Sequence record: OR896835.1
Direction: 5' to 3' (one strand)
Length of the DNA: 47,574 nucleotides
From: Escherichia phage RobRod40
A program made the translations under genes and the position numbers. Under the pieces are notes generated by a model, which did no database searches, was not told the origin of the DNA, and was given only the letters and a program-made list of their open reading frames with translations. Of this stretch, positions 2,628-44,851 are shown piece after piece. Numbering within the stretch: the first letter of the stretch is position 1; each line of letters opens with the position of its first letter.

Positions 2628-3881
2628 ATGGTCAAGACAGACAGCTACGCCAATATCTTTCTCGGCGGTAGTGATGGTAGTGAGATTTACGGAAGTTTAC
2701 AGAATCAGGCACCAACAATTCTGGCCTCGCTTTACGCGGATAATGCTCTAGTGCGTCGAATTATCGACACAATCCCAGAGACGGCATTGGCGGCAGGATT
2801 CCATATTGATGGTATTGATGATGAGCCTGCATTCTGGTCGCGCTGGGATGATTTAGAAATGACGCAGAATATTAACGATGCATGGTCATGGGCTAGGTTG
2901 TTCGGCGGGGCTGCTATTGTCGCTATCGTTAAGGACAATAGAGCGCTAACAAGTCCGGTAAGAGAAGGAGCGGAACTTGAAACTGTTCGCGTTTACGACC
3001 GTACACAAGTAAAGGTTCAAACTCGCGAGGAGAATCCACGCAATGCACGTTTTGGTAAGCCACTTACCTATCGCATCACCACTAACGAAAGCGATATGTT
3101 TTACGATGTGCATTACAGCCGCATTCACGTCATCGATGGCGAGAGAATTCCTAACGTAATGCGTCGGCAAAATGATGGCTGGGGCCGCAGCGTTCTTTCC
3201 AGTGATATTCTTGACTCAATCAAGGATTACACCAATTGCGAACGACTCGCCACCCAGCTGCTGAGACGCAAGCAACAGGCGGTGTGGAAAGCCAAAGGTC
3301 TGGCTGAGCTGTGTGATGATAGCGAAGGATTTGGTGCCGCGCGCTTGCGACTTGCTCAGGTAGATAACAACAGTGGAGTTGGTCAGGCGATTGGTATTGA
3401 CGCGGAATCTGAAGAATATAGCGTTCTAAACTCTGATATTGGCGGGATTGATGCGTTTCTGGACAAGAAGCTCGATAGAATCGTTGCACTGAGCGGTATT
3501 CATGAAATAATCCTGAAGAACAAGAACGTTGGCGGTGTATCATCAAGCCAGAACACGGCTTTGGAGACATTCCACAAGCTAGTTGACCGCAAGCGTAATA
3601 GCGAGCTACTTCCTATTCTTGAGTTCTTAATCCCGTTCATTGTTAATGTGTCTGAATGGTCAGTGGAGTTTAACCCATTAGCTCAGGAGTCAAGCAAGGA
3701 TAAAGCGGAAATTCTGGAGAAGAACGTAAACAGCATCGCGGCACTAATTGCAGCTGGAGCTATGGATACTAACGAGGCTCGTGATACACTACGCACTATC
3801 GCGCCAGAGATTAAGATTGGTGATGGTGATATTGAGGCTCCGGAACAAGAACCCGCAGAGGAGGTTGTGATTAATGAGTAA
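2628..3881 (+). CDS. portal protein
   Basis: ~417-aa ORF after terL; ATG at 2628 preceded by GGAG (ORF-track start 2616 is TTG); size and position typical of siphovirus portal. Confidence 0.7.
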   Translation: MVKTDSYANIFLGGSDGSEIYGSLQNQAPTILASLYADNALVRRIIDTIPETALAAGFHIDGIDDEPAFWSRWDDLEMTQNINDAWSWARLFGGAAIVAIVKDNRALTSPVREGAELETVRVYDRTQVKVQTREENPRNARFGKPLTYRITTNESDMFYDVHYSRIHVIDGERIPNVMRRQNDGWGRSVLSSDILDSIKDYTNCERLATQLLRRKQQAVWKAKGLAELCDDSEGFGAARLRLAQVDNNSGVGQAIGIDAESEEYSVLNSDIGGIDAFLDKKLDRIVALSGIHEIILKNKNVGGVSSSQNTALETFHKLVDRKRNSELLPILEFLIPFIVNVSEWSVEFNPLAQESSKDKAEILEKNVNSIAALIAAGAMDTNEARDTLRTIAPEIKIGDGDIEAPEQEPAEEVVINE

Positions 3882-7595: not shown

Positions 7596-7609
7596 CAAAA
7601 AGCCCACCA

Positions 7610-7637
7610 TTGCGTGGGCTAAAAACTCGTGTATAAT
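7610..7637 (+). promoter_or_regulatory. candidate promoter for major capsid gene (TTGCGT-16-TGTATAAT)
   Basis: Perfect TATAAT at 7632-7637 with upstream TG; -35 region overlaps hairpin 7601-7620. Confidence 0.4.
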
Positions 7638-7675
7638 AAACCCGTAGACACCTAACTGAAAAGGAACAATAAAGA

Positions 7676-8620
7676 ATGGCCATTAAATTTGATGCAGAAC
7701 AAGCAAAAATCACCGCTCACCTCGAGCAAATGGGCGTAGATAAAGCTGATGCCGCCGGTATCTGGACCGTTAAGCAGCTGACCGCCACCCTGAATCGTGC
7801 TTACGAAAAAGAATATGCAGACAACTCCGTTGTTAACATCTTCCCTGTAACCAATGAAATCCCTGGTCACGCTAAGTATTTCGAATATCCAGAATTTGAT
7901 GGCGTTGGTATTGCTCAGATTATCGCGGATTACTCTGACGACCTGCCGCTGGTTGATGCTTTCATGACAGAGAAGCAAGGTAAAGTTTTCCGTTTCGGTA
8001 ACGCATTCCTGATTTCTACTGATGAAATTAAAGCAGGCGCTGCTACTGGTCAGTCTCTGTCAACTCGCAAACAGGCACTGGCTTTCGAAGCGCACGACAA
8101 CCTGCTGGATAAACTGGTTTGGTCTGGATCCACTCCGCACGGTATCGTGAGCGTATTCGACCAGCCGAACATCAACAACGTTGTTGCAACACCAGACTGG
8201 AGCGAGCCGCTGAACGCAATTAATGACGTTACTGCAATGATTGATGCGGTTGAGACTTCAACTCAGGGCTTCCATCACGTGACTGATATTCTACTTCCGG
8301 CATCTGCTCGCCGAGTAATGCAGGTTCTTGTTCCGAGTACTACCCTGAGCTACGGTGAGCTGTTCACCCGTAATAATCCGGGCCTGACTATTCGTTACAT
8401 GCAGTTCCTGGATAACTACGATGGCGCAGGTGGTAAGGCTGCTCTGGCGTTTGAAAAGAACCCGTTGAATATGTCTATCGAGATTCCAGAAGCTACAAAC
8501 GTACTTCCTGGTCAGCCGAAAGACTTGCACTTCAAGTACCCAGTAACTTCTAAAGCGACCGGTCTGATTGTTTATCGCCCTCTGACGATGGCAGTAATCA
8601 AAGGTATTACCTTCGCGTAA
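7676..8620 (+). CDS. major capsid protein
   Basis: 314 aa; own promoter with perfect TATAAT; strong terminator downstream; position in head module. Confidence 0.75.
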   Translation: MAIKFDAEQAKITAHLEQMGVDKADAAGIWTVKQLTATLNRAYEKEYADNSVVNIFPVTNEIPGHAKYFEYPEFDGVGIAQIIADYSDDLPLVDAFMTEKQGKVFRFGNAFLISTDEIKAGAATGQSLSTRKQALAFEAHDNLLDKLVWSGSTPHGIVSVFDQPNINNVVATPDWSEPLNAINDVTAMIDAVETSTQGFHHVTDILLPASARRVMQVLVPSTTLSYGELFTRNNPGLTIRYMQFLDNYDGAGGKAALAFEKNPLNMSIEIPEATNVLPGQPKDLHFKYPVTSKATGLIVYRPLTMAVIKGITFA

Positions 8621-11787: not shown

Positions 11788-11809
11788 ACCCTCTTCGGAG
11801 GGTTTTTTA
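11788..11809 (+). terminator. rho-independent terminator after major tail gene
   Basis: ACCCTC-ttcg-GAGGGT hairpin then TTTTTT. Confidence 0.8.
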
Positions 11810-11813
11810 TTGC

Positions 11814-11857
11814 ATAGCACTTTTTGCTAAAGCACTTATTCAACTTTGATGTATAGT
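11814..11857 (+). promoter_or_regulatory. conserved promoter-like module (ATAGCAC-ttt-TTGCTAAA, 22 bp, TATAGT)
   Basis: Directly after major-tail terminator; followed by TACTTCATCGAAACGA leader; precedes lipoprotein gene. Confidence 0.6.
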
Positions 11858-12965: not shown

Positions 12966-15737
12966 ATGGCAACAAATGAATTAGCCGGAATCACACTAGC
13001 CGTAGACGTATCGCAGGTAGATAGGGGAACGCAATCCCTACAGAAGTTTAGGCAGGCTAACCAACAGGCCGCTTCCGGTATTAGTGAATTCGTCAACGCT
13101 GAGCAGGTCGCTAAAAACCAGGCTAGAGACACCGCGCGAGCACTTGCTGAGCAACAGGCTTCACTAGCTAAGCTGCAAACAGCTATTGATCCAACTGCGG
13201 CAAAGTTCCGCAAGCTGCAAGAGGCTGCGGTAGGTCTCGATAAGGCATTCGCGGCTGGAGTGGTGCCTGATGAGGAATTTTTCCGATTAGGTGAGGCTCT
13301 TGAAACTCAAAACGCAAAACTTGCTCGTTCACGTGCTGCGCTAACTGAAGAGGGGAGGGCTGCGGCTCAGGCTGCAAAGGATAAGGCAAAGGCAAAGGCT
13401 GAAGCGGATAGATTTATTGCGTCACTGCAACGACAGGCTCAAGCGGCAACATTGACGCGTGAAGAGTACTTGAAGTTGCAGGCGGCCCAGCTTGGCGTAT
13501 CCGCACAGGCGACCCCATTAATCAACCAGATTGGAGCAGCAACCCAAAGGACTGTTGAAAATCTTGGCAAGCAAGCCGCAGCATTCCAGAGGTCAGGTTT
13601 AAGTGCGGGACAATACAAGAATGCGATTTCTCAGTTACCAGCACAGATTACTGATATTGGTACATCATTAGCTGGCGGCATTCCTATTTGGCTTATTGCA
13701 ATCCAGCAGGGTGGGCAGATTAAGGATTCATTTGGCGGCATTGCTAATACTGCGAGATTCCTTCTTTCTTATCTCAACCCTCTCACAGTAGCCGCTGGCG
13801 TTCTTGGTGCTGGCTTTGCTTACGCCGCGGTAAGTATTTACAAGAGCGAGGCAGCCATTAAGGCAGCAAGAAAGGCGGTTGAGGAAACTCTGGGTGTCAC
13901 AGATGAGGCGGCTCGACAGTTAAGCATTAGCATCGCCAAGATTTCAGAGGCATCAGGGAAGACCGCTGAAGATATCGCGAAGTCATTCGTATCAACACGT
14001 GACGGAGCGCAAGAAGCAATTCTGAAGCTGATTGATGTTGGTGTAAGTTATGATGATGCAAGGGAGCTAGTTGAGCGATATAAGGATGCCTCCAACTTTA
14101 CCCAAGTTAACGCGCAAATCGAGCAACACAGACTTGAAGCTGCAAAGATTCAGGATAGCTGGTTCGAGAACGCAAAGGCCGTTAGCTACTATAACGATGT
14201 TGCAGTCCAGGGCCTAGTTAACTCACCACTAACAAACGTGGCGGCAAGAAACAGCGCGGCAATTCAGGAGTTCGCAAGCCTTCTGGAAAAGGACGTTAAC
14301 CAAGCTCTTATAGATGGAAATAGACATGTAGCCGAGCAAGTTGATTTAATCGGTAAAGAATACTTGGCACTTGACCGCGTGGCTGGTGCGGAGAAATCCC
14401 TGGCAGACGCTAGAAAGCAAGCAGCGGCAATCGCCAGAAGCGGTAACGCTGAAGCTATCGCCCAGGCCAATAGAGTCATTCAGTTGCGTCAGCGAGAGGT
14501 TGATGAAGCCAAGAAGGCCGAAGCGGAGAGAAATAAGCCAGCAAAAACGAAAGCACCAAAGGAAGCCAGAGACCTTACCATCAATTATGAGTCAGGAGTC
14601 CTTGCTCTTGAGGCGCAGTTAAGGCTTCTTCAGGACGTAGGGAGTCAGACAAAGGCAATCAGCACTGAGCGGAGAAAGCTTCTTGAGGAAGAAGCTAAGT
14701 TTGCAATCCTTGAGGAGCGTCAAGCAGCTGGTACAATAGGAAGAGAACAGGCCAGGCTTCTTCTTGAAAAGGATAAAGTTCTTGAACTAGCAAGACAGAA
14801 GGCTGAACTAGGTGATCAGATTGTTTTGCAGGAGCGCGCTAATAAGCTGGCTGAGGATAACCGCAAAAAGATTCTTCAGATAAACAACGAAGCAAATAAC
14901 ATCGATTTGGGCGCTGGGTTATCATCTCGGGATCAACAAAGGTCAAGAGAGATTCAGGCTCTTCAGTCCAATCAGGAAAACGCTGGTGGTTCTCTTGATG
15001 ACTTAGATTTCCAGCAATTACTGGAAGCAAGAAGGCAGTACTACAAGGATGAGGATAATCTCAGAGCAAACTGGAAAGCAGGTGTGACCTCCACTCTCTC
15101 TGACTTGAGTGATGAGTATACCAACTTCAACAAAATCGCCGGGGATTTAACCGCTGCGGCATTCAATGGAATTACCGATCAGATTACAAACCTTGTAACC
15201 ACTGGTGAGACCAACTTCCGGGAGTTCACCGCAAACATCCTCAAAATGATTGCTAAGATTGCAACTCAATTACTTTTGGTTAAGGCTATTGAATCTACAA
15301 TCAAGAGCTTTGGTGGTAACACTGGCGCGGGTAGTGCCTTCGAGTCAATAAGGTCAGCAATTGGTTTCGCTGGTGGTGGTTACACTGGTGATGGTGGAAA
15401 GTACCAGCCAGCGGGTACGGTACACCGAGGTGAATTCGTATTCACAAAAGAAGCAACAAGCCGAATTGGTGTTAAGAACCTTTACGCACTGATGAAAGGT
15501 TACGCAAATGGCGGTGCTGTAGGTGGCCCATCTGGTTATGCTAATGGCGGTTTGGTTTCTGGTGGGTCAGATGTTAATGTTAGTGGTATCACCGTTAACG
15601 TTAATGGTGGCGTTGGTAGCGACCCAGAACAGGCCAAAGCATTGCAGAGTGGCGTTAAGGCAATCGTAGCTGAAGAGATTGCTCAGTCTTTCCAGCAGGG
15701 AGGCAAAGCGTATGCCTATTTGAGAGGTTTTAACTAA
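12966..15737 (+). CDS. tail tape measure protein
   Basis: 923 aa, Ala/Gln/Glu-rich coiled-coil-like with Gly-rich C-terminal region; RBS GGAGG; follows G/GT chaperone. Confidence 0.85.
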   Translation: MATNELAGITLAVDVSQVDRGTQSLQKFRQANQQAASGISEFVNAEQVAKNQARDTARALAEQQASLAKLQTAIDPTAAKFRKLQEAAVGLDKAFAAGVVPDEEFFRLGEALETQNAKLARSRAALTEEGRAAAQAAKDKAKAKAEADRFIASLQRQAQAATLTREEYLKLQAAQLGVSAQATPLINQIGAATQRTVENLGKQAAAFQRSGLSAGQYKNAISQLPAQITDIGTSLAGGIPIWLIAIQQGGQIKDSFGGIANTARFLLSYLNPLTVAAGVLGAGFAYAAVSIYKSEAAIKAARKAVEETLGVTDEAARQLSISIAKISEASGKTAEDIAKSFVSTRDGAQEAILKLIDVGVSYDDARELVERYKDASNFTQVNAQIEQHRLEAAKIQDSWFENAKAVSYYNDVAVQGLVNSPLTNVAARNSAAIQEFASLLEKDVNQALIDGNRHVAEQVDLIGKEYLALDRVAGAEKSLADARKQAAAIARSGNAEAIAQANRVIQLRQREVDEAKKAEAERNKPAKTKAPKEARDLTINYESGVLALEAQLRLLQDVGSQTKAISTERRKLLEEEAKFAILEERQAAGTIGREQARLLLEKDKVLELARQKAELGDQIVLQERANKLAEDNRKKILQINNEANNIDLGAGLSSRDQQRSREIQALQSNQENAGGSLDDLDFQQLLEARRQYYKDEDNLRANWKAGVTSTLSDLSDEYTNFNKIAGDLTAAAFNGITDQITNLVTTGETNFREFTANILKMIAKIATQLLLVKAIESTIKSFGGNTGAGSAFESIRSAIGFAGGGYTGDGGKYQPAGTVHRGEFVFTKEATSRIGVKNLYALMKGYANGGAVGGPSGYANGGLVSGGSDVNVSGITVNVNGGVGSDPEQAKALQSGVKAIVAEEIAQSFQQGGKAYAYLRGFN

Positions 15738-18324: not shown

Positions 18325-21300
18325 ATGGCTGAAGAGATTAAGATTTATGGTGCTAAAGGCGGTAGCCAGAAGCAGCATCAACCAGTTGAGCAGGAAGATA
18401 ACCTAATTTCGGTTAACAAGGTTAAGGTATTGCTTGCTGTTGCTGATGGTGAGGTTGACTCTAATTTCTCCATGAAGGATTTATACCTTGCTGATGTGCC
18501 TGTTCAGAACCAGGATAACAGCTATAACTATGAGGGTGTTAGAGCAGAATTTCGCGCTGGGACTCAGTATCAGGATTACATTGCTGGACTTGATGGTGCT
18601 AACTCAGAGATTCAGGCATCTCGTGAAATCACGAATGACACGCCTTACATTATTGCGGTTAATAACAGTCAGCTTTCGGCAATTCGGGTTAAACTTTTTT
18701 GGCCTAGATTGGTTAAGCAAGAAAGCAACGGCGACCTGAATGGTACAACTTGCGAGTACGCAATTGACTTGTCCGTTAATGGCGGAGTATATCAGGAATA
18801 CACTCGCGGAGTTGCAAACGGTAAGACAACTACTGGTTACGACCGCAGCATTCGTGTAAACCTTCCGGCTGAATTTGATAGTGCACTGGTTCGGATCCGA
18901 AAGATTACAGCGGATTCAACGAGTAGCACACTGGTTAATGGAATGCAGATTACAACCTATCAGGAAGTAATCGACGCTAAATTCCGATATCCGCTTACAG
19001 CACTTGTTTATGTTGAGTTCGGCTCTGACCTTTTCCCTAACGGGATCCCGACAATATCAATCAAGAAGAGATGGAAGCTGATTCAAGTTCCAACGAACTA
19101 TAATCCGGAGACAAGAACCTACAGCGGAACATGGAATGGCCTGTTCAAGATGGCATGGTCAAACAACCCTGCCTGGGTTCTTTATGACTTAGTCACAAAC
19201 CGACGTTATGGTCTTGACCAGCGAGAGCTAGGTGTAGAGATTGATAAGTGGGGATTGTATGAAGCCGCGCAATTCTGTGACCAGATGGTTCCAGATGGCA
19301 AGGGTGGCTTAGAGCCGAGATACCTTTGCGATATGGTTGTGCAAAACAAGGTTGAAGCTTACACGCTAATTCGCGATATCTGCTCAATCTTCCGCGGACT
19401 GACTTTCTATGATGGCGAAAAGATTGGTATCGTGGTTGATAAGCCTCGCAATCCATCATACATCTTTACGAATGATAACGTTGTAAATGGGTTATTTAGC
19501 CGCACATTTGCCAGTGATAAGAGTCTTTACACTACCGCAAACGTCCAGTTTGATGATGTAGAGAACAACTATCAACAAGATGTAGAGCCGGTATTTGAAT
19601 TAGAGGCAACTCGTCGTTTTGGATTTAACCCTGTAGATTTGACTGCGATTGGCTGCACTCGCAGAAGTGAAGCAAACAGGCGCGGCAGGTGGCTCCTAAA
19701 AACCAACCTGAGAAGCGAAACTATCAGCTTCACTACCGGGCTGGAAGGCATGATTCCGATGATTGGCGAGGTCATTGCAGTTAATGACGCGGCATGGTCT
19801 AGCAACTATCAGTTAAACCTTTCCGGTCGTATTGAATCAGTTCAGGGATTGCAGGTTTTTACCCCGTTTAAAGTTGACGCAGCGCCGGGTGACAGAATTC
19901 TTCTGAACAAGCCAGACGGAAGTCCAGAGGCAAGAACTATTGCCAGCGTTTCGGAAGATGGTAGAACAATCAACCTTAACACCGCTTTCAGTTTTGTTGC
20001 TCAGCCTGATACTGTGTTCGCAATCGATAAGGACAATCTGGCGCTTCAGCAATATGTTGTGACCGGGATTCAAAAAGCGGATTCAGACGGCTCGGACTCG
20101 TTCCAGTATACGATTACAGCAGTAGAGTATGACCCGAACAAGTATGACGAGATTGACTACGGCGTTAACATTGTTGATCGTCCGACTTCAATTGTAGAGC
20201 CTGATAGATTGTCGCCACCAGAAAACCTTACCGTATCAAGTTACAGTAAAATTGTTCAGGGCTTGTCAGTTGAGACGATGGTCATTGGATGGGATAAGGC
20301 TCCATACGCTAAAACCTACAATGTTCAGTGGAGAAAAGAGAATGGCAACTGGATTAACGTACCCAGAACAGCTAGCACAGAAGTTGATATTGAGGGTATT
20401 TACGCAGGAATCTATGACGTTAGGGTTCGCAGCGTATCAGATACTGAAAACGTTTCTGCATGGTCTGACATTGTAACAGTATCGCTAACTGGCAAGATTG
20501 GTCGCCCATCGGCACCTACGGTTATCACGGCATCAACAGATGAGGTATTTGGCATCCGTGTTAAGTGGGGTTTCCCTGAAGGCTCTGGTGACACTGCTTA
20601 CACTGAACTTCAACAGGTTCCTGATAATGGTGATGGTACTTACAATCCTGATAACGCAAGTTTGCTTACATTACTTCCGTATCCGGCTTATGAATACTGG
20701 CACACGCCGATTCAGCCGGGTAAGGTTATCTGGTATCGCGCAAGGATTATAGATAGGATTGGCAATACATCTGATTGGACGGATTTCGTCAGAGGAATGA
20801 GTACTGATGATGCTCAGAAGATCGCTGAATATATCAAGGTTGATATCGAGCAGTCTGAAGGCTTTAAATACCTACAGCAGAATGCAATTGAGAAAAACCA
20901 GGACATTCAGAATCAAGCTGAGGCAATTATCGAGAACGCATTGGCGAATGACTCAGATGTAAGGCTTCAGTCTGTTAAGAATGGGAAATTTACAGCTTCA
21001 ATAACCGAAAGTCTTCAGTTGATTGCCGATGAGCAGCAAGCCAGGGTAACTCAGATATCTCAGCTTGAAGCGGATTTTGACGGAAGGGTTAATTCTTTAA
21101 ACACTGAACTAAGAGAGGTAATAACAACTGGTGATAGCGCTCTATCAAGATCAATTGATGATTTAAGGGTTGAGATTGACGAGAACATATCATCACAAAT
21201 AACAAACATAAACACAGCTTTAGTAACAGAAGCAGAAGCAAGAGCAACGGCTGACACGGCTTTGTCTGCAAGGCTTGGTCAGAACGAGGCAGCGCTAAAC

Positions 21301-24957: not shown

Positions 24958-25608
24958 ATGCAAATTTCAGAATCATGCAAATCAATTTTAAACGCGCTGC
25001 ACACTGCCAAATCGCTATTTGCGAAAGCTGAAAAGTCTAAGCATAACTCGCACCTTAAGAATAAATACGCCACCCTAGAAGACGTTTTGGCAGCTGTTGA
25101 GCCAGGACTTGATGAGTGCGGGCTGGTAATGTTCCAGAGCGTACTTGATGATGAACAAACTAACCGTATCAAGGTTGAGACAAAGCTGTTCCACGCGGAG
25201 TCAGGCGAGTGGGTCAGCTTCTTAATGATTGTCCCAATCAGCAAGCAAGACGCTCAAGGTTACGGATCCGCACTTACATACGCTCGACGTTATGGAATCA
25301 CGGCGGCATTAGGACTTAGTCAGGCAGATGATGATGGAAATCTGGCAGCGAAAGGCGTTAAAGATTTCAAACGAGAGCTTGAGAAGTGCAACACATTAGA
25401 TGAGCTTCGTAACGTTTGGAAGGATGCTAAGCAGTCACTGGATGCGGCGGGTTGGAAGGTTTTCGAACCACACATCATCGAGCGAAAAGCAGAAATAGAA
25501 GCAAACGCAGCAACTGGCTTTAACCCAGCAACACCAAAGAAAGTTGCAGAAAAAAGTAGTAATGACGAAAAGCCTGAAGTAGAATCACAACAAATCGACA
25601 CATTCTAA
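24958..25608 (+). CDS. erf: Erf-family single-strand annealing protein
   Basis: GSALTYARRYGITAALG motif; located between exonuclease and SSB. Confidence 0.65.
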   Translation: MQISESCKSILNALHTAKSLFAKAEKSKHNSHLKNKYATLEDVLAAVEPGLDECGLVMFQSVLDDEQTNRIKVETKLFHAESGEWVSFLMIVPISKQDAQGYGSALTYARRYGITAALGLSQADDDGNLAAKGVKDFKRELEKCNTLDELRNVWKDAKQSLDAAGWKVFEPHIIERKAEIEANAATGFNPATPKKVAEKSSNDEKPEVESQQIDTF

Positions 25609-26085: not shown

Positions 26086-26109
26086 AAGCCCCTTTCGGGG
26101 CTTTTTTAT
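26086..26109. terminator. bidirectional terminator between ssb and minus-strand tailspike
   Basis: AAGCCCC-tttc-GGGGCTT flanked by A-run upstream and T-run downstream. Confidence 0.7.
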
Positions 26110-28442
26110 TAACCTATTTTAGTGTAAGTCCATCTGTAAGTAGCTGTACCCAGTGCAGTTATAAAAACAATCCTTGAGCTAACATCAATTGTTGTAAAGG
26201 ATGCCGTCTTAGTGACTATAATTGATGACGCGGTTCCATCAAAGAGAACATCAGCTATGACGCTATAGTTTGTTCCAGCATTCTGCACCCAGCAACAAAC
26301 CTTATAAAGACCTGCTGAGTTAGGAAGTTCAAAAAGACCAGCTTGAACGTTTGCCTGCGCCACCGTTGAACCTTTAGCCGTATAAACACCATCAGTCTTC
26401 AATCCTTCTGATGAGTAGGTCTGCTTATAACCACCAACAATAGAACCACCCATAGGTTCAGTAAACCAGTTCACATTACCCTGACTAACAACAGATATTA
26501 CAGGAGCGCCACCTTTGGCTGACTGGAACCTGCCGCTTAAAATGTCAATTCTAGATGCTGAGTCCTGGGCGTAGATAGTTACAGGGTATCCACCAGTTCC
26601 AGTGTAAACCAAGCCGTCATTATCAAGAGAATCTTCCGAAGAGTCAATAATGACGTGAGAAGTTCCAGAAGCCTTGATATATGAAACCACACCACTAGAA
26701 CCTGCGCCAGTTGTTCTAACTTCGTTCTTCCATCCTGTCAGGCCTGAAATTCTTCCATTTGAGTTATTAAACCTAATCAGGCAACAATCCTGAGAACCGT
26801 TGGTGTCAATAATGTTACCTTCAACGTCCATCCCTAGTATGTTTACACTATGACTGTTGATGAAGTTAATTCCAGCCCCACCATAAGAGCCAGATGTTGA
26901 TGATATATTGCTTCCATCCATTGCGCAGTTAATCATCGTAACGCTCATTACTGCACCAAATTCATAAGGTGAAATGCAACCTGATGCGTAACAAGTCTCA
27001 AGCAACATTGTCGTCCCAGTCGCCTTGATGAATCCCGTTCTGCAATTCCTGGCCCAAACATTCTGTAACTTAGTTTGGTATGTTCCAGTGGTATCCGTGT
27101 AACAACCCCACGCTCCATGTACCGTGCAATCTTTGATACATGAATTTTCCAGACCAGTTGCAGAACCAACATTAGAAACGAAGTTAAATGCTATCTTTTG
27201 ATCATTCCCTGATGCTACGGTAGGTGTGGTTCCTGGATTATAAAAAATGTAAAGACCTTCAATAAATATTTGATACATTCTTATGTTTTGTGCATCACCC
27301 TGAACCAAGGCAAACAGGTTGATGTTACCATCAACTGAGATAAATGTTTGCGCCCTGTTAATTTGGTCTGTTCCCTCGCCAATAATTCTTGTGCTGTTGC
27401 CAATCCTTACAGTCCTGTTAATAAACATAAATCCTTTTGGTATGTATACCGTTTTGCCAGTATTAACCGCCGCCTGAAGCGCAACTGCGTCAAGTGACTC
27501 GTTAAGGTTTGATGCAAACGGATAAACAACCCGTGCAGCCTCAATTGTAGAGAATTTAGATGATAGCGGAACTAAACTACCGTTGTTTGTGGCGCCGAAA
27601 TCCATAACGTTAACAAAATCACCAAGTTTTGATTCCACGCTTCTAACTACTGATGATACATTATTCAGCTTGAAGTTAATCATTGATGAGCCATTATCAT
27701 TCTCAAGATTTTTAAGAACCCTTCCGTTTGAAAGGAGTCTCCATCCAGTAGCATCATCTATACCACCAGTTCCTTCTGGAGTTGATCCTTGCGGGACAAC
27801 CTTAGGGAATGCTCCAGACCACACATAAACAGAAGAGTTTTCAATGTCTATGATTTGCTGAGAATCACCCTCGAGAGTAACTCCACCCTGGAAGCTGCCA
27901 ACTAAAGCACCTGAAACTGATGCCGCCGCACTCTGGGCGACGCTTGCAGAGTTGATTGCAGATAATGCGGAATTAGAAGCAGAATCTTTGTCACTTGAAA
28001 CCTGAGCGGCATCGTTTGAAACCTGCGCACCAATTGAAACCACTTCATTATGCTGCGTGTCAACCTGAGCAACCTTAGCACTAAATTCATTTGCATCAAA
28101 GTTGTTGAAAGCATCAACAGCATCTGCAACCTCAGTTTCACGTGACTGATAGTAACGAAGAGTTTCTGCAACATCCTGCGCCAGTCCCTGAACGCTAATT
28201 CCATCATGGGCAAGGATTGCGTAACCAGTACCAGCAGGAACAGTTTCACCATTAGGATTGTATACAGCTAATGATGTGTCGCTAGTGATTTCAGAGATAG
28301 TGTAAATCTGTACTGGCTCTGTTTTAAAAACCAATGTAGCACCAACGCGAATAAGCGTTAGCGGCATAGTCCATTGAGTACCAACACCAGTAACTTGCCC
28401 GTTAGCGGCTAAACTGGCAGTGCCAGTATCATAAATTGCCAT
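26109..28442 (-). CDS. tail fibre / tailspike with beta-helix-like central domain
   Basis: N-terminus MAIYDTGTASLAANGQVTGVGTQW typical of tail-fibre anchor; Gly/Asn/Thr-rich central domain; ATG at 28442 with GGAG RBS (track start 28472 is GTG). Confidence 0.65.
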   Translation of the reverse strand: MAIYDTGTASLAANGQVTGVGTQWTMPLTLIRVGATLVFKTEPVQIYTISEITSDTSLAVYNPNGETVPAGTGYAILAHDGISVQGLAQDVAETLRYYQSRETEVADAVDAFNNFDANEFSAKVAQVDTQHNEVVSIGAQVSNDAAQVSSDKDSASNSALSAINSASVAQSAAASVSGALVGSFQGGVTLEGDSQQIIDIENSSVYVWSGAFPKVVPQGSTPEGTGGIDDATGWRLLSNGRVLKNLENDNGSSMINFKLNNVSSVVRSVESKLGDFVNVMDFGATNNGSLVPLSSKFSTIEAARVVYPFASNLNESLDAVALQAAVNTGKTVYIPKGFMFINRTVRIGNSTRIIGEGTDQINRAQTFISVDGNINLFALVQGDAQNIRMYQIFIEGLYIFYNPGTTPTVASGNDQKIAFNFVSNVGSATGLENSCIKDCTVHGAWGCYTDTTGTYQTKLQNVWARNCRTGFIKATGTTMLLETCYASGCISPYEFGAVMSVTMINCAMDGSNISSTSGSYGGAGINFINSHSVNILGMDVEGNIIDTNGSQDCCLIRFNNSNGRISGLTGWKNEVRTTGAGSSGVVSYIKASGTSHVIIDSSEDSLDNDGLVYTGTGGYPVTIYAQDSASRIDILSGRFQSAKGGAPVISVVSQGNVNWFTEPMGGSIVGGYKQTYSSEGLKTDGVYTAKGSTVAQANVQAGLFELPNSAGLYKVCCWVQNAGTNYSVIADVLFDGTASSIIVTKTASFTTIDVSSRIVFITALGTATYRWTYTKIG

Positions 28443-28465
28443 TGTGTAAATTCTCCATTTGTAAA

Positions 28466-28483
28466 ATAGCACGAATTGCTAAA
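28466..28483 (+). promoter_or_regulatory. motif copy ATAGCAC-gaa-TTGCTAAA without canonical downstream hexamer
   Basis: Lies in leader/upstream region of minus-strand tailspike gene; an extended -10 TGcTACAAT is present on the minus strand at 28488-28496. Confidence 0.4.
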
Positions 28484-28507
28484 GTGGATTGTAGCATCTT
28501 TCGGGTA

Positions 28508-28530
28508 TAAAAAAACCTCCCGAAGGAGGT
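28508..28530 (-). terminator. rho-independent terminator (minus strand, after primase-like gene)
   Basis: CCTCC-cgaa-GGAGG hairpin with A-run on + strand (T-run on minus). Confidence 0.7.
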
Positions 28531-29453
28531 TAGTCTAGTAATTCACTTGCCTTGTATATTCGCTTTCTTATGCCTGACTTGAAAAAATTATCATCATTTG
28601 GTATTACAACATCAAGATTACGATCGTCAGCAACGGCAAGTAAATCAAAAGCGTGGCGAGTACAAGCGATGCGTAACTTGTAGTTTCTAAGCGCGTAAGC
28701 AACCATTTCCATGTTGTAGCAGGAGTGGCAAACAAGTACGCAGCGGTTGCCAGTAGCAAGATGAGCGCGAATACCATCAATCCAATTATCGACCAGATAA
28801 GCGTACTCATCATCCTTAAATGAACCAATAACAGAAACAGATTGGCGAGTATAATCTTTTGCAGCATAACTAACATTCCCCTCTTCATTGATAAACATTA
28901 CATTGCACATTTCTTCTGATATACCGTCACTATAAGCCATAAAGCACGGTACTGCGTGGATTAGTTCTCCTGACTTTGCCCTGCCAACATCAAAACCGAA
29001 CTCACTATAAATACCCTCGTATGTACTGAGCGGCGTTGATTCTACTCTTTCCGTCCTTTCCATTATCTCTAAGCATCTTTCGTGGTCAATCTGAGCGCCC
29101 ATTTTGTAGATCTGAGTTCTTGATGCTTGCTTGTTTGCTTTAACTATAACCTCAATTGGTGTTAAGTTCAGCCAGTCACCAAGCAAATTTACTGAATCGG
29201 CGAAGGACGATCCAGTGCACTTCATGACCCATCCTATACCGGAGTCACTTCCGCATTTCGAACAAACTGCCGCGCCATTTCCTTTTTCACTGCCTATTTC
29301 GTCGGTAAATCTGAATCTGTCAGTGCCAAAGCAGTATGGGCATGGTCCGTGCTTCTTACTTAGGTGCCTATCATTCCAACCAAGCTCCTTTGCATAAAAT
29401 GATTTCCACAATCCGGCCATCTTAGGTATAACTTCATTCTTATCGTAACTCAT
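28530..29453 (-). CDS. putative DNA primase (zinc-finger containing)
   Basis: CPYCFG...CSKCG zinc-binding motif near N-terminus; position in replication block. Confidence 0.5.
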   Translation of the reverse strand: MSYDKNEVIPKMAGLWKSFYAKELGWNDRHLSKKHGPCPYCFGTDRFRFTDEIGSEKGNGAAVCSKCGSDSGIGWVMKCTGSSFADSVNLLGDWLNLTPIEVIVKANKQASRTQIYKMGAQIDHERCLEIMERTERVESTPLSTYEGIYSEFGFDVGRAKSGELIHAVPCFMAYSDGISEEMCNVMFINEEGNVSYAAKDYTRQSVSVIGSFKDDEYAYLVDNWIDGIRAHLATGNRCVLVCHSCYNMEMVAYALRNYKLRIACTRHAFDLLAVADDRNLDVVIPNDDNFFKSGIRKRIYKASELLD

Positions 29454-29929
29454 TTGCTTAACCCGTGATTTTCGTGAAAGTTGTATTTTCTCTCTGCTTC
29501 AATTCTTACTTTATACGCCTGCTCTGGAGTATCGAAGTTCCCAAGGTGTAGCTGCTTACCGTCAACCTTGATGTGAGCCTTAAATTTTCCGTGATTTAGC
29601 TTTGCCACTCCACAATAACCAGTTGTTGATAAAACGCTAAGCTTGCAATTTCTTGAGTTACCTTGATTTGTTGTTACTCTTAGGTTTTCTATTCTGTTAT
29701 CTAATTTGTTATGGTTTATATGATCAATGTAGTCGCCATTTTGAAGTTCTCCATTAAACATCTCCCACACAACTCTATGTACATAAGTCCTAAAGCCATT
29801 AATAGACACTTTGTAATAGCCAGATGTAGATAGTGAGTTGCACTCATCGCCAACCTTAACACGTCTTGCAGTGCTAATCTTCCAATGCAATTTGCCATCT
29901 ACATAGTAAAAATAATCATGCCAGTTCAT
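29450..29929 (-). CDS. HNH homing endonuclease (paralog 3)
   Basis: MNWHDYFYYVDGKL, HRVVWEMFNG, IDHINHNKLDNRIENLR motifs; GGAGAG RBS. Confidence 0.85.
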   Translation of the reverse strand: MNWHDYFYYVDGKLHWKISTARRVKVGDECNSLSTSGYYKVSINGFRTYVHRVVWEMFNGELQNGDYIDHINHNKLDNRIENLRVTTNQGNSRNCKLSVLSTTGYCGVAKLNHGKFKAHIKVDGKQLHLGNFDTPEQAYKVRIEAERKYNFHENHGLSK

Positions 29930-29960
29930 TTTCTTCTCTCCAATAAAAAAGGATGTACCG

Positions 29961-30004
29961 ATTATGGCACATCCAATTACTTACTCTTTAGCTTTTCGTG
30001 CTGC
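29961..30004 (-). promoter_or_regulatory. conserved promoter-like module, variant (CAGCAC-gaa-AAGCTAAA, 22 bp, CATAAT) on minus strand
   Basis: Overlaps 3' end of regulator gene; palindrome GGATGTgccataatcgGTACATCC spans -10; precedes HNH paralog 3. Confidence 0.5.
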
Positions 30005-30454
30005 TTCGTTAGCGGCCTTAATCTTTCGCCATGATCGACACTCTGGCTTGGTGGCTAGTTCAGCTTCAGTAACCACACGCAGCATGTGACGCTTTTTGCA
30101 CCGAAGTGTCAGCGGTTTTCCGTTACCATCGAATTGCAGGTCTGGTCGGCAGAATGTTGCGCGAAAGCCTTCTCCATTTCGCTTGTAGTAGTTGTGCGAT
30201 AGCTGGGCACCACGCGCAGAAATCATACCGCGCTTAAACCATTCTTCTACAGCCTGCGGTGTTACCTTTAGCTGCTTTGCGATATTCGCCTTTGTGCCGA
30301 AGAAATCAAGAACTATCTCTAGTCGAGCACGTAATCCAGCCCTTACCTCATCTTTCAAAACGTAGTAGCCTGAAGGTCGTTTGCGTTGCTTCTTATCTTG
30401 TGTGCGGACCGTTCCGTTATTACCGTTAGTCGTTCGCTTGTCAACTGAATTCAT
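29981..30454 (-). CDS. putative HTH DNA-binding regulator
   Basis: Candidate helix-turn-helix TKANIAKQLKVTPQAVEEWFKRG; basic N- and C-termini; GAGGTG RBS; divergent from helicase operon. Confidence 0.5.
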   Translation of the reverse strand: MNSVDKRTTNGNNGTVRTQDKKQRKRPSGYYVLKDEVRAGLRARLEIVLDFFGTKANIAKQLKVTPQAVEEWFKRGMISARGAQLSHNYYKRNGEGFRATFCRPDLQFDGNGKPLTLRCKKRHMLRVVTEAELATKPECRSWRKIKAANEAARKAKE

Positions 30455-30466
30455 TTAATCACCTCA

Positions 30467-30510
30467 ATAGCATTTTTTGTTAAAAGTCATTCTGATTTGA
30501 TGTTAGTATT
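30467..30510 (+). promoter_or_regulatory. promoter-like module variant (ATAGCAT-ttt-TTGTTAAA) in divergent region
   Basis: Between minus-strand regulator and + strand helicase; -10-like TAGTAT offset by 1 bp from canonical 22-bp spacing. Confidence 0.4.
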
Positions 30511-30555
30511 GTACTCAATTAAACGCTACAAGACAATTTTTATAGGAATTTAGAT

Positions 30556-32971: not shown

Positions 32972-33011
32972 CACGAATTGCTAAATACGAATCGGTGAGG
33001 TGGTGTATTAT
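32968..33011 (+). promoter_or_regulatory. conserved promoter-like module (ATAGCAC-gaa-TTGCTAAA, 22 bp, TATTAT)
   Basis: Palindrome GAGGTGgtgtattatCACCTC spans -10; leader CATCGAAACGAAAC. Confidence 0.6.
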
Positions 33012-33047
33012 CACCTCATCGAAACGAAACACAGAGAGAGAAACAAA

Positions 33048-34507: not shown

Positions 34508-34759
34508 ATGTTGGGTTTAGATTTTCAGCAAGAGCATTACGATTTAGTACATGGACAAAGTGGAGCTAAGTTTAGAGCGATACCTATTGCTGACTGGCTC
34601 CCTCCTGACTATGTGGATGTGAACGCAAAAACTAAAGACGGGAAGTGGGTGCAGATTTACTATTCCCCAGCGTGTGGAAACCTTTGCATGACTGACCTTG
34701 AGAGAAAATTAGCAATTAGTGCGGAAGTGATCGACTACTGGTTGAAAGAAGTTGAATGA
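34508..34759 (+). CDS. hypothetical protein
   Basis: ATG 34508 after AAGGA (track start 34502 is TTG). Confidence 0.5.
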   Translation: MLGLDFQQEHYDLVHGQSGAKFRAIPIADWLPPDYVDVNAKTKDGKWVQIYYSPACGNLCMTDLERKLAISAEVIDYWLKEVE

Positions 34760-34842: not shown

Positions 34843-35973
34843 ATGGCAACTGCAAAAATCACCAACGAACAATTGCGCGAAGAGCTTGCAAATGGGATGA
34901 CCAACAAAGCAATCGCAGAGAAGTATGGAATGAACATTCGCAACGTTGAATTACGTCGTAGTAAATTGGCTAAGAGTGGAGAATTGCACGGAAACCCTGG
35001 CATCAAGAAGTTAGTTCCAGATGGGTATATGGTTAAGGGAACTTCAACAATGATTGATGCGGATGGTAACGAAAAGATTCGCTGGGTCAAAACTTCTATA
35101 GATAATGAGCGCCTTGAGATTTTGATGGATCAGGCTCGTGAGGCATTCTGTTCTGATTTACCAAAAGCAGATGCGGTAATCCACTCAGGCAATGAGATTA
35201 ACTCTGAATTAATGACTCTTTACCCGATTTTCGATATCCATATTGGTATGATGGCTCATCGTCATGAATCTGGTGAGAATTATGACACGAACGCGGCAGA
35301 GAAATTAATGGGATCATATTTTGACCATGCAATTTCTGTATCACCTGCGTCAGAGAAAGCCGTGGTTTTAGTTGGTGGTGACTTCCTTCACTCTGACGGA
35401 TTGGAGGCTGTAACCCCAGCGAGCGGGCACTGCCTTGATCAGGATAGTCGGTATGCTAAGTTAGTTTATGTTGCGATTCGCTCAATTCGTGGTGCAGTAG
35501 AGAAGATGCTTAAGAAGCATAAGAATGTAGAGATTCAGATTATAGAGGGAAATCATGACCAAAGTGGTATGATTTGGCTTCGCGCGGCAATGGCTGCATT
35601 TTATGAAAATGAGAGTCGGGTGTTTGTTGATACCAGTCCGGCAATCATGCACAAAACACGATTTGGCTCAACACTACTTGGTTACACGCACGGTCACACG
35701 ATGAAGAAGGCTGAGGGTCGACTCGCAGCAATGGCGACAGACTACCGCAAAGACTTTGGTGAATGTGAGTTTGTTTACTGCCATTCCGGGCATTTTCACC
35801 ACGCAACTGTCACGGAGTGCACGCTTGGCATTGATGAAGTTCACCCAGCGCTGGCTAGTAAGGATGCGTATGCGGCCCGTGGAGGTTGGCGCTCATATCG
35901 TCAAGCGGCTGCAATAATCTATCACAAGGAGTTTGGCGAGGTTGGTCGCCACATTTATCGCCCAGGTATGTAA
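34843..35973 (+). CDS. HTH domain + metallophosphoesterase fusion protein
   Basis: N-terminal HTH-like MTNKAIAEKYGMNIRNVELRRSKL; calcineurin-like motifs GDFLHSD, GNHD, GHTHGH. Confidence 0.6.
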   Translation: MATAKITNEQLREELANGMTNKAIAEKYGMNIRNVELRRSKLAKSGELHGNPGIKKLVPDGYMVKGTSTMIDADGNEKIRWVKTSIDNERLEILMDQAREAFCSDLPKADAVIHSGNEINSELMTLYPIFDIHIGMMAHRHESGENYDTNAAEKLMGSYFDHAISVSPASEKAVVLVGGDFLHSDGLEAVTPASGHCLDQDSRYAKLVYVAIRSIRGAVEKMLKKHKNVEIQIIEGNHDQSGMIWLRAAMAAFYENESRVFVDTSPAIMHKTRFGSTLLGYTHGHTMKKAEGRLAAMATDYRKDFGECEFVYCHSGHFHHATVTECTLGIDEVHPALASKDAYAARGGWRSYRQAAAIIYHKEFGEVGRHIYRPGM

Positions 35974-36017
35974 ATAGCACTTTTTGCCTAACCCATGCCG
36001 TAGAAATGCGGCATAAT
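35974..36017 (+). promoter_or_regulatory. conserved promoter-like module (ATAGCAC-ttt-TTGCCTAA, 22 bp, CATAAT)
   Basis: Spacer palindrome TGCCGtagaaatGCGGCA; leader CATCGAAACGAG. Confidence 0.6.
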
Positions 36018-44781: not shown

Positions 44782-44821
44782 CACTAATTGTTAAAATAGC
44801 ATTGGGGTAATTTGTTATAGT
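44778..44821 (+). promoter_or_regulatory. conserved promoter-like module (ATAGCAC-taa-TTGTTAAA, 22 bp, TATAGT)
   Basis: Palindrome GGGGTAatttgttatagtTACCCC spans -10; leader CATCGAAGCGA. Confidence 0.6.
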
Positions 44822-44851
44822 TACCCCATCGAAGCGAATGAGGACAAACAG

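Follow-up and report, generated by a model that had tools for sequence, protein, structure and literature searches.

What does a promoter repeat do when it faces away from the gene that it precedes? The question is raised by the 87-bp gap (28443-28529) between the primase and tail-fibre (tailspike) genes of Escherichia phage RobRod40 (record OR896835.1), whose 47,574 nucleotides (nt), hereafter the window, carry in this gap a perfect plus-strand copy of the direct repeat of the Drexlerviridae, i.e. a copy that is backward relative to the tail-fibre gene. Sequence comparison assigns the window to the T1-like phages (Drexlerviridae): 113 phage records match the 1.5 kb that surround the locus, and nearly all of them are from Escherichia siphophages of this family, including AugustePiccard, DTL, CEB_EC3a, SU57 and Rtp. 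As read from the sequence, the gap is arranged as a terminator, then a promoter with an extended -10, then a backward repeat placed like an operator. The repeat at 28466-28483 would be an operator through which the factor that activates other promoters of the phage represses or times the transcription of the tail-fibre gene, a reading to which we give a probability of about 0.45, i.e. slightly short of even. The repeat family (which is published) and this kind of control are already known; the novelty lies in the backward copy at the tail-fibre promoter and in evidence that this repeat family may consist of class II marboxes, i.e. sites of the host regulators MarA, SoxS and Rob.

The features that the earlier note had described are all present in the sequence, including the primase terminator with its 7-pair stem and T run. 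Read on the minus strand, the gap successively displays TAA (within the stem), AACCTCC-TTCG-GGAGGTT, seven T, ATACCCGAAAGA, TGCTACAAT and CCAC, and then TTTAGCAATTCGTGCTAT, TTTACAAAT, GGAG, AATTTACACA and the ATG. The plus strand at 28488-28496 reads ATTGTAGCA, i.e. TGCTACAAT on the minus strand, in which a TGn lies directly 5' of a TAnnnT hexamer; it begins about 20 nt past the primase terminator. The hexamer found 17 nt 5' of this -10 is GTTTTT, so that the promoter has no usable -35, as had been proposed. Within the window, the extended -10 is not significant, TGNTANAAT having 14 matches for 10.0 +/- 3.1 expected, and its significance must therefore come from relatives. These were gathered along three independent routes: 9 loci through homology of the primase, 14 T1-like loci through the region of the tail-fibre start codon, and whole-genome records of T1, AugustePiccard and TLS.

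All 14 T1-like loci selected solely via the tail-fibre start carry TGNTANANT at the same place, and all display TG-N-TA-N-A-N-T between a terminator hairpin and the ribosome-binding site; they differ from one another in the stem of the hairpin, in the bases that separate it from the TG and in the leader. The extended -10 of T1 itself is TGATAAAAT. One lineage (L008, L009, L014, L026 and L027) keeps TGATACAAT and is devoid of the repeat; therefore, the tail-fibre promoter exists independently of the repeat. At the tail-fibre gene of TLS, TTGCAT-17-CATAAT is found, again with no repeat. Of 101 GenBank phage records, 84 match the 121-nt spacer with an identity of at least 90%, and the 1.5 kb including the flanking genes shows 80-90% identity in 99 of 113 records, the spacer being better conserved than the genes that flank it. 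This comparative evidence marks the extended -10 of the minus strand, which lacks a -35, as a conserved promoter of the tail-fibre gene. The standard sigma-70 geometry predicts a transcription start 7-8 nt past the hexamer, which would give the tail-fibre mRNA a leader of about 38 nt. A second extended -10 formed by the end of the repeat itself (TGCTATTTT, 28471..28463) was rejected, as its hexamer is lost in two relatives (TAAACA in L013, TATCAA in L021) and as the mRNA would then have a leader as short as about 13 nt.

The position of the repeat relative to this promoter gives a first clue to the question. The copy, ATAGCACGAATTGCTAAA without any mismatch, matches the core of the published consensus aaATAGCACnnnTTGnTAAAA at 18 of 18 positions and is preceded by aaa. 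It covers about -2 to +16 of the tail-fibre promoter, with its centre near +7, the start being a predicted one. It had been proposed to lie within the 5' untranslated region of the tail-fibre mRNA; it does overlap the 5' end of the predicted leader, but only in part, as it spans the start itself. Such a location, inside the footprint of RNA polymerase, is that of an operator. Indeed, the search rule used for repression by marboxes retains as candidates the sites centred between -35 and +25 of a promoter, in either orientation (PMC12052159), and the copy falls within these limits. It departs from the orientation and position that characterise its family, since it opposes the genes on either side and its end is 24 nt away from the tail-fibre ATG.

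The association of the two elements is not specific to this phage. At least seven divergent lineages, T1 included, carry the backward repeat 4 nt past the -10 hexamer (5 nt in the T1-type phages); these lineages differ in their terminator stems, in the 4-5-nt linker and in their leaders, while the order extended -10, linker, backward repeat is constant. Among relatives, variation of the repeat is confined to the three N positions at the centre of the family consensus, with the exception of one G>T in the RE2 half (one phage) and of some changes at the two outermost bases. From this position-specific conservation in divergent lineages, we conclude that the extended -10 and the backward repeat are selected at the DNA level as a unit of fixed spacing.

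What the repeat does elsewhere bears directly on what it might do here. The re-annotation of TLS published in 2024 reported 21 copies of the 21-nt direct repeat aaATAGCACnnnTTGnTAAAA, co-oriented with transcription and located about 76 nt 5' of start codons, and its presence in T1, Rtp and Rogue1; a stoperator, an enhancer site or an UP element were proposed as its function, without deciding between them (PMC11447400). The window holds 13 copies of the motif at no more than 3 mismatches, for 0.04 expected. The repeat was surveyed in the window, T1 and AugustePiccard, which yielded 63 copies at no more than 2 mismatches, and 48 promoters were profiled. The distance between the 18-mer and a TAtaaT hexamer is exactly 20 nt for 47 of the 63 copies and 19 or 21 nt for most others. 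Seventeen of the 18 good copies of the window are co-directional with the next gene and lie 19-21 nt 5' of a TAtaaT -10, 14 of them at exactly 20 nt, which bears out the earlier suggestion that the motif acts elsewhere as an upstream promoter element.

In the profile of the 48 promoters, the repeat occupies -50 to -33 in forward orientation, with its centre at -41.5. The -35 position carries no information across these promoters, and the TTGCTA included in the repeat is not a -35, because it is located 22 nt from the -10. The -10 shows an A at -11 in 48/48 promoters and a T at -7 in 47/48; position +1 is an A, and the leader begins with a conserved sequence, CATCGAAACGA, before the ribosome-binding site and the ATG. 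On these features of sequence and spacing, the seventeen repeat-bearing promoters of the window, which share one architecture, look like the main promoter type of the phage.

The layout of these promoters is that of a known class of host promoters. The 20-bp Martin consensus of the MarA/SoxS/Rob marbox, which we take to be AYnGCACnnWnnRYYAAAY, fits the repeat and was used as a lead. The repeat reads GCAC(G/T)(A/T)(A/T)TTG(C/T)TAAA, i.e. CACG-AATTGCT-AAA, and the contacts of MarA and RamA consist of CGTG and TTT seven bases apart, the micF site being CACT-7N-AAA centred near -41 (PMC8811837). The published E. coli marbox consensus GCAHWWWWTGYYAAA (PMC6900184), in which CAC(G/T) and AAA are 7 bases apart, was searched on its own and has 17 sites in the window for 1.7 expected; 16 of these 17 sites are repeats, and none of 100 shuffles reached 17. 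The copy at 28466-28483 matches this consensus at 14 of 15 positions (one mismatch) and eight other copies match it at all 15. The positions left free in the search pattern follow the W, W, Y degeneracy across the 48 promoters. Furthermore, the information profile is asymmetric, with an invariant GCAC block, a TAAA block, a W-rich centre and unmirrored flanks, as expected of the site of a monomer carrying two helix-turn-helix motifs. Elsewhere in the window, an intragenic marbox-like match (GCACTAATTGCTAAT, 34708-34722, minus strand) has no -10 at 20 nt and fits the chance expectation of 1.7.

Class II promoters are defined by a forward marbox that overlaps the -35 and is centred between -36 and -55 (PMC12052159, PMC6900184). 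The other copies are forward, centred at -41.5 and 20 nt from their -10, whereas the nearest plus-strand hexamer of the 28466-28483 copy is 22 nt off and lacks the final T. In Escherichia coli MG1655, the same 20 nt separate ACAGCACTGAATGTCAAA from TAGAAT at micF, where the -10 ends at -8 of the annotated RNA, ATCGCATAAACCACTACA from TATCAT at nfo and ACGACACGTTTCATTAAG from TATAGT at inaA; at fumC, a perfect 18-mer comes directly after the fumA terminator. Phage and host promoters thus share the consensus, its asymmetry, the forward orientation, a centre near -41 and the lack of a -35, and the distance to the -10 is identical in the phage and at micF, nfo and inaA. Since sequence, orientation, position and spacing all agree, the repeat promoters are class II marbox promoters in layout, and this agreement suggests a class II marbox as the nature of the family repeat. 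Host marboxes, however, are degenerate, in contrast to the phage sites, which are near-perfect and almost the same at every promoter; the phage sites would also drive almost the whole phage genome rather than a stress regulon, by a putative binding of MarA, SoxS or Rob. The fumA-fumC spacer (L034) shows the marbox ATGGCACGAAAGACCAAA no more than 4 nt past the fumA terminator, a succession of terminator and marbox also seen at several phage junctions (e.g. window 11790-11831).

Several features of the repeat are those of the published direct repeat, namely its sequence, its GAA/TTT/TAA subtypes and, for 17 of the 18 window copies, an intergenic co-oriented placement about 70-76 nt 5' of starts; the TLS study lists solely co-oriented intergenic copies (PMC11447400), and TLS itself has none at the tail-fibre gene. 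The fixed distance of 20 nt to the -10, the marbox match and the backward tail-fibre copy come from the present analysis. A comparison with the stoperators of mycobacteriophage L5 was raised by the authors of the TLS study (PMC11447400). Like the repeat, these are many short asymmetric intergenic sites, mostly in one orientation. However, they block elongation and are unphased with the -10, whereas the phage repeat is strictly phased with it.

From these features we infer that a protein binds the repeat and represses tail-fibre transcription, and that this protein may be the Rob, MarA or SoxS of the host. In the proposed mechanism, a strong intrinsic terminator would close the operon made of the regulator, HNH endonuclease and primase genes, and the extended -10 promoter TGCTACAAT would initiate the tail-fibre mRNA near 28480. 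The perfect 18-nt repeat, lying backward across the start point, would serve as a marbox-type protein site, its GCAC and AAA blocks, 7 bases apart, being read by the two helix-turn-helix motifs of a MarA, SoxS or Rob monomer. At the about 17 other promoters, the forward repeat at -50 to -33 would replace the -35, in a class II activation geometry identical to that of micF; the same factor, bound at the tail-fibre promoter, would block RNA polymerase or promoter escape. The activator of most phage promoters would thereby hold down or delay the tail-fibre gene. This might provide dosage control of a low-copy virion protein or, alternatively, a timer freed once replicating phage DNA titrates the factor.

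The operator model rests on the location of the site inside the polymerase footprint and on the ability of MarA-type regulators to repress from sites in the core promoter. At pbpG, a marbox over the core promoter mediates direct repression, which SoxS exerts in vitro and either MarA or SoxS exerts in vivo (PMC12052159). As would be the case at the tail-fibre promoter, a site within the footprint of RNA polymerase converts an activator to a repressor; the pbpG marbox, however, is located in the spacer between -35 and -10, whereas the tail-fibre site lies just 3' of the -10, across the start of a promoter whose sole element is an extended -10. Marboxes that overlap the core promoter also repress purA, hdeA and rob. 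More largely, the CI protein of lambda at OR and the p4 protein of phi29 illustrate how one type of site activates or represses according to its position relative to the promoter. These are phage-encoded dimers or multimers, whereas here the best sequence match is to the site of a monomeric host regulator.

Various points weigh against the operator model. TLS and one other lineage are devoid of the repeat at the tail-fibre promoter, and the copy is thus dispensable. As the marboxes of E. coli are degenerate, a match to their consensus is no proof of binding. The core of the repeat is a 5-bp palindrome, TAGCA-N5-TGCTA, which a dimeric phage helix-turn-helix protein could bind instead, and the binding factor may be a phage protein not homologous to MarA, SoxS and Rob. 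The rationale for an activator of other promoters, two of them in the structural gene block, to repress the tail-fibre gene is not obvious. A search of the literature yielded no binding, transcription-start or expression data for any T1-like phage. We know of no report of rob, marA or soxS mutants that resist T1. Searches of the literature for Drexlerviridae transcription starts or transcriptomes and for links between marboxes and phages returned only the TLS study as relevant, and no paper linking marboxes to T1-like phages. Finally, the six-frame translation, searched with a profile and with phmmer, gave no phage homologue of MarA, SoxS or Rob (best E-value 0.4), which is a moderate negative.

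A wider reading, which is doubtful as a whole, would extend these observations to T1-like phages in general, nearly all the promoters of which would be wired to the MarA, SoxS and Rob of the host via near-perfect class II marboxes, the tail-fibre promoter being wired in the opposite way by a backward marbox that covers its start. If so, the strength and timing of phage expression and the ratio of tail fibres would be set by host stress (bile salts, oxidants and antibiotics, via Rob, SoxS and MarA) or, alternatively, by the titration of the regulator by replicating phage DNA. T1, a classic phage, encodes neither a polymerase nor a sigma factor and has very few canonical promoters. If the repeat is a marbox, the promoters of the family become readable, as about 17 class II promoters and one operator, and a published unexplained repeat acquires a testable function; this would also directly link host antibiotic and stress regulators to phage gene expression, with relevance to phage-antibiotic combinations and to the gut conditions that activate Rob. 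The operator model predicts that mutation of the operator shifts the dosage or timing of the tail fibre. Should the repeat prove to be something else, what remains is an ordinary, well-conserved junction of terminator, promoter and operator.

A serious alternative for the identity of the factor, which we consider unlikely, keeps the same operator logic and replaces the host regulator by the conserved Cro-like regulator of the phage, bound as a dimer on TAGCA-N5-TGCTA. The half-sites of this 5+5 palindrome are one helical turn apart and the regulator carries one helix-turn-helix (weak match to P22_Cro and weak match to 1rzs in a PDB sequence search), but conservation of the repeat is asymmetric, ATAGCAC being invariant and the second half, TTG[C/T]TAAA, varying, and the flanks are A-rich on both sides and unmirrored, in the TLS consensus as well. 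The regulator gene has a canonical promoter, TTGTCT-17-TACAAT, and TLS has only three canonical promoters, one of which drives the regulator gene. In the window (30455-30555), the -10 of this promoter (30513..30508, minus strand) overlaps that of the divergent, repeat-dependent promoter of the helicase gene (repeat at 30467-30484, -10 TAGTAT at 30504-30509, plus strand), the helicase repeat lying within the 5' untranslated region of the regulator; such a layout would give autoregulation. However, repeat promoters are also found 5' of the earliest gene blocks, at both ends of the T1 genome, which fits poorly with a newly made phage protein. A single-sequence AlphaFold model of the regulator was too poor for a fold search (pLDDT 41). 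Judging from the overlap of their -10 sequences, the regulator and helicase promoters are likely mutually exclusive and, 2 kb away from the tail-fibre promoter, would provide a second example of antagonistic wiring.

The earlier note had also raised the possibility that the backward copy drives a short antisense RNA that reaches the 3' end of the primase gene; such a plus-strand promoter, whose RNA would cross the terminator and which would compete with the overlapping tail-fibre promoter, is quite improbable. The copy does point rightward without mismatch, a TATAAA lies downstream of it, the distance between the repeat and the T tract of the terminator is constant in four divergent lineages, and the helicase/regulator pair indicates that overlapping back-to-back promoters occur in the phage. 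However, the TATAAA is 22 nt from the repeat, whereas, of the copies of the three genomes that have a good -10, all but one (T1 38953, 23 nt) place it at 19-21 nt, and 20 nt is the spacing of the three E. coli class II promoters; the final T, present in 47 of 48 real promoters, is missing from the TATAAA; in relatives the hexamer is CATAAA or AATAAA, T1 lacks any candidate, and no lineage displays a valid -10 at 19-21 nt. Furthermore, the lineage devoid of the repeat has the same distance between terminator and promoter, and no plus-strand open reading frame or terminator is found downstream of the candidate. A class I use of the backward marbox, by a promoter located about 55-62 nt downstream, was also rejected: the sole candidate, TGGAGA-18-TATGAT, is in codons 3-5 of the tail-fibre gene and its transcript would lack the start codon.

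It is very improbable that the motif acts as RNA, i.e. that a 5'-terminal hairpin AGCA-AUUCG-UGCU stabilises the tail-fibre message or tunes its translation. 5' stem-loops can shield E. coli mRNAs against decay, the predicted start is at the foot of the palindrome and an isolated piece of 23 nt folds with -3.8 kcal/mol (z = -2.2), but the UAGCA/UGCUA stem has only 4-5 pairs and the minimum-energy fold of the leader, whose z-score is -0.64, does not include it. Relatives show no compensatory change, one G>T even breaking a pair without compensation, and no Rfam family matches; the folding leader hairpin that had been proposed is therefore not retained. In addition, the motif is equally conserved at about 17 other sites, where the local promoter does not transcribe it, which indicates that selection acts on DNA. 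Equally hard to credit is a copy without any regulatory role, either the relic of a rightward promoter or a linker that aids recombinational exchange of tail-fibre modules, since, in spite of the mosaicism of tail-fibre genes (identity drops within the gene) and of two lineages that lack the copy without apparent harm, its informative positions are kept, bar one G>T, at a fixed distance from the -10 in at least seven lineages whose surrounding bases diverged freely.

Features of the tail-fibre promoter region and repeat promoters of the window
Feature	Position	Strand	Basis or remark
Perfect copy of the Drexlerviridae direct repeat, ATAGCACGAATTGCTAAA	28466..28483	+	0 mismatches; backward relative to the tail-fibre gene
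Extended -10 of the tail-fibre promoter, TGCTACAAT	28488..28496	-	Sequence and relatives; hexamer 28493..28488
Predicted tail-fibre transcription start	28480..28481	-	Standard sigma-70 geometry, 7-8 nt past the hexamer
Intrinsic terminator of the primase operon	28509..28531	-	AACCTCC-TTCG-GGAGGTT and T run
TATAAA, sole plus-strand -10-like hexamer 3' of the repeat	28506..28511	+	Judged non-functional, arises from the T tract of the terminator
Shine-Dalgarno GGAG of the tail-fibre gene	28453..28456	-	Sequence; ribosome-binding site annotation in SU57
Tail-fibre/tailspike gene, 777 aa, MAIYD...	26109..28442	-	Pfam Tail_spike_N, E 9.8e-13
DNA primase gene, last of the regulator-HNH-primase operon	28530..29453	-	Pfam Zn_Ribbon_Prim, E 6.7e-10; annotation of relatives
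HNH endonuclease gene	29450..29929	-	
Cro-like 'transcriptional regulator' gene	29981..30454	-	Open reading frame list; annotation of relatives; weak Pfam P22_Cro
Repeat promoters	2109, 11814, 24885, 30467, 32968, 33864, 35974	+	
Repeat promoters (continued)	43060, 43883, 44335, 44778, 45521, 46998	+	
Repeat promoters	23241, 39426, 39857, 41371	-	

The genes around the locus are transcribed from the minus strand in the order Cro-like regulator, HNH endonuclease, primase and tail fibre. The start of the tail-fibre gene is the ATG at 28442..28440, which is kept in relatives and replaces the GTG at 28472 of the open reading frame list. The stop codon of the primase gene (TAA, 28532..28530) is inside the stem of the terminator. 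This terminator is the sole terminator-like site that a scan detects in the region (stem 28531..28514, 7 pairs, loop of 4, T tail) and is also annotated as such in CEB_EC3a and SU57; every relative has a hairpin at this position, with stem sequences that differ. In T1 (L028, 34791-34934), the annotated start ATG of ST25 falls within the tail-fibre extended -10 TGATAAAAT, and this open reading frame, which covers the repeat and the leader, is probably no gene.

A pattern scan of viral contigs for an extended -10 followed by a backward repeat gave 70 matches. About 35 IMG/VR metagenome contigs (L035-L037, L041-L044, L046, L049-L052 and others) belong to an unrelated virus family and were discarded as coincidental; their matches sit in a conserved coding region and vary at third codon positions. 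This family is apparently marine.

Other arrangements of promoters and terminators were observed. Perfect inverted repeats of 5-9 bp flank the -10 hexamer in 18 of the 48 repeat promoters of the window, T1 (L028) and AugustePiccard (L029), for 20% (maximum 35%) with permuted partners. Their arms vary by promoter (GGGGTA/TACCCC, AAGGCC/GGCCTT, TGAGGTG/CACCTCA); examples are found at 32986-33020 and 44796-44830 of the window and at 1468-1500 and 3553-3585 of T1. At the 3' end of the regulator gene of the window, a degenerate repeat, GCAGCACGAAAAGCTAAA (29987-30004, minus strand), is followed 20 nt on by CATAAT (29966..29961), which lies in the loop of a terminator hairpin, GGATGT...ACATCC and six T (region 29945-30004); the same layout, a promoter -10 within a terminator, is found at 35930-35995 of T1. 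In the late region of T1, copies at 15069-15086 and 18833-18850 (minus strand) and at 8362-8379 and 25021-25038 (plus strand) are backward or have no -10 at 20 nt. One of these late copies lies between TTGACG and TATTAT, 5' of the major capsid gene, and is followed by a terminator hairpin, TLS having a copy at the same place (DR7); whether the backward repeat at 15069-15086 is part of a capsid promoter is uncertain, as the terminator hairpin comes next. The major capsid gene of the window (7676..8620) is itself preceded, in the region 7600-7640, by a hairpin, GCCCAC...GTGGGC, and by a TATAAT located 12 nt past it, without -35 or repeat, a layout that resembles the terminator and -10-only arrangement of the tail-fibre gene.

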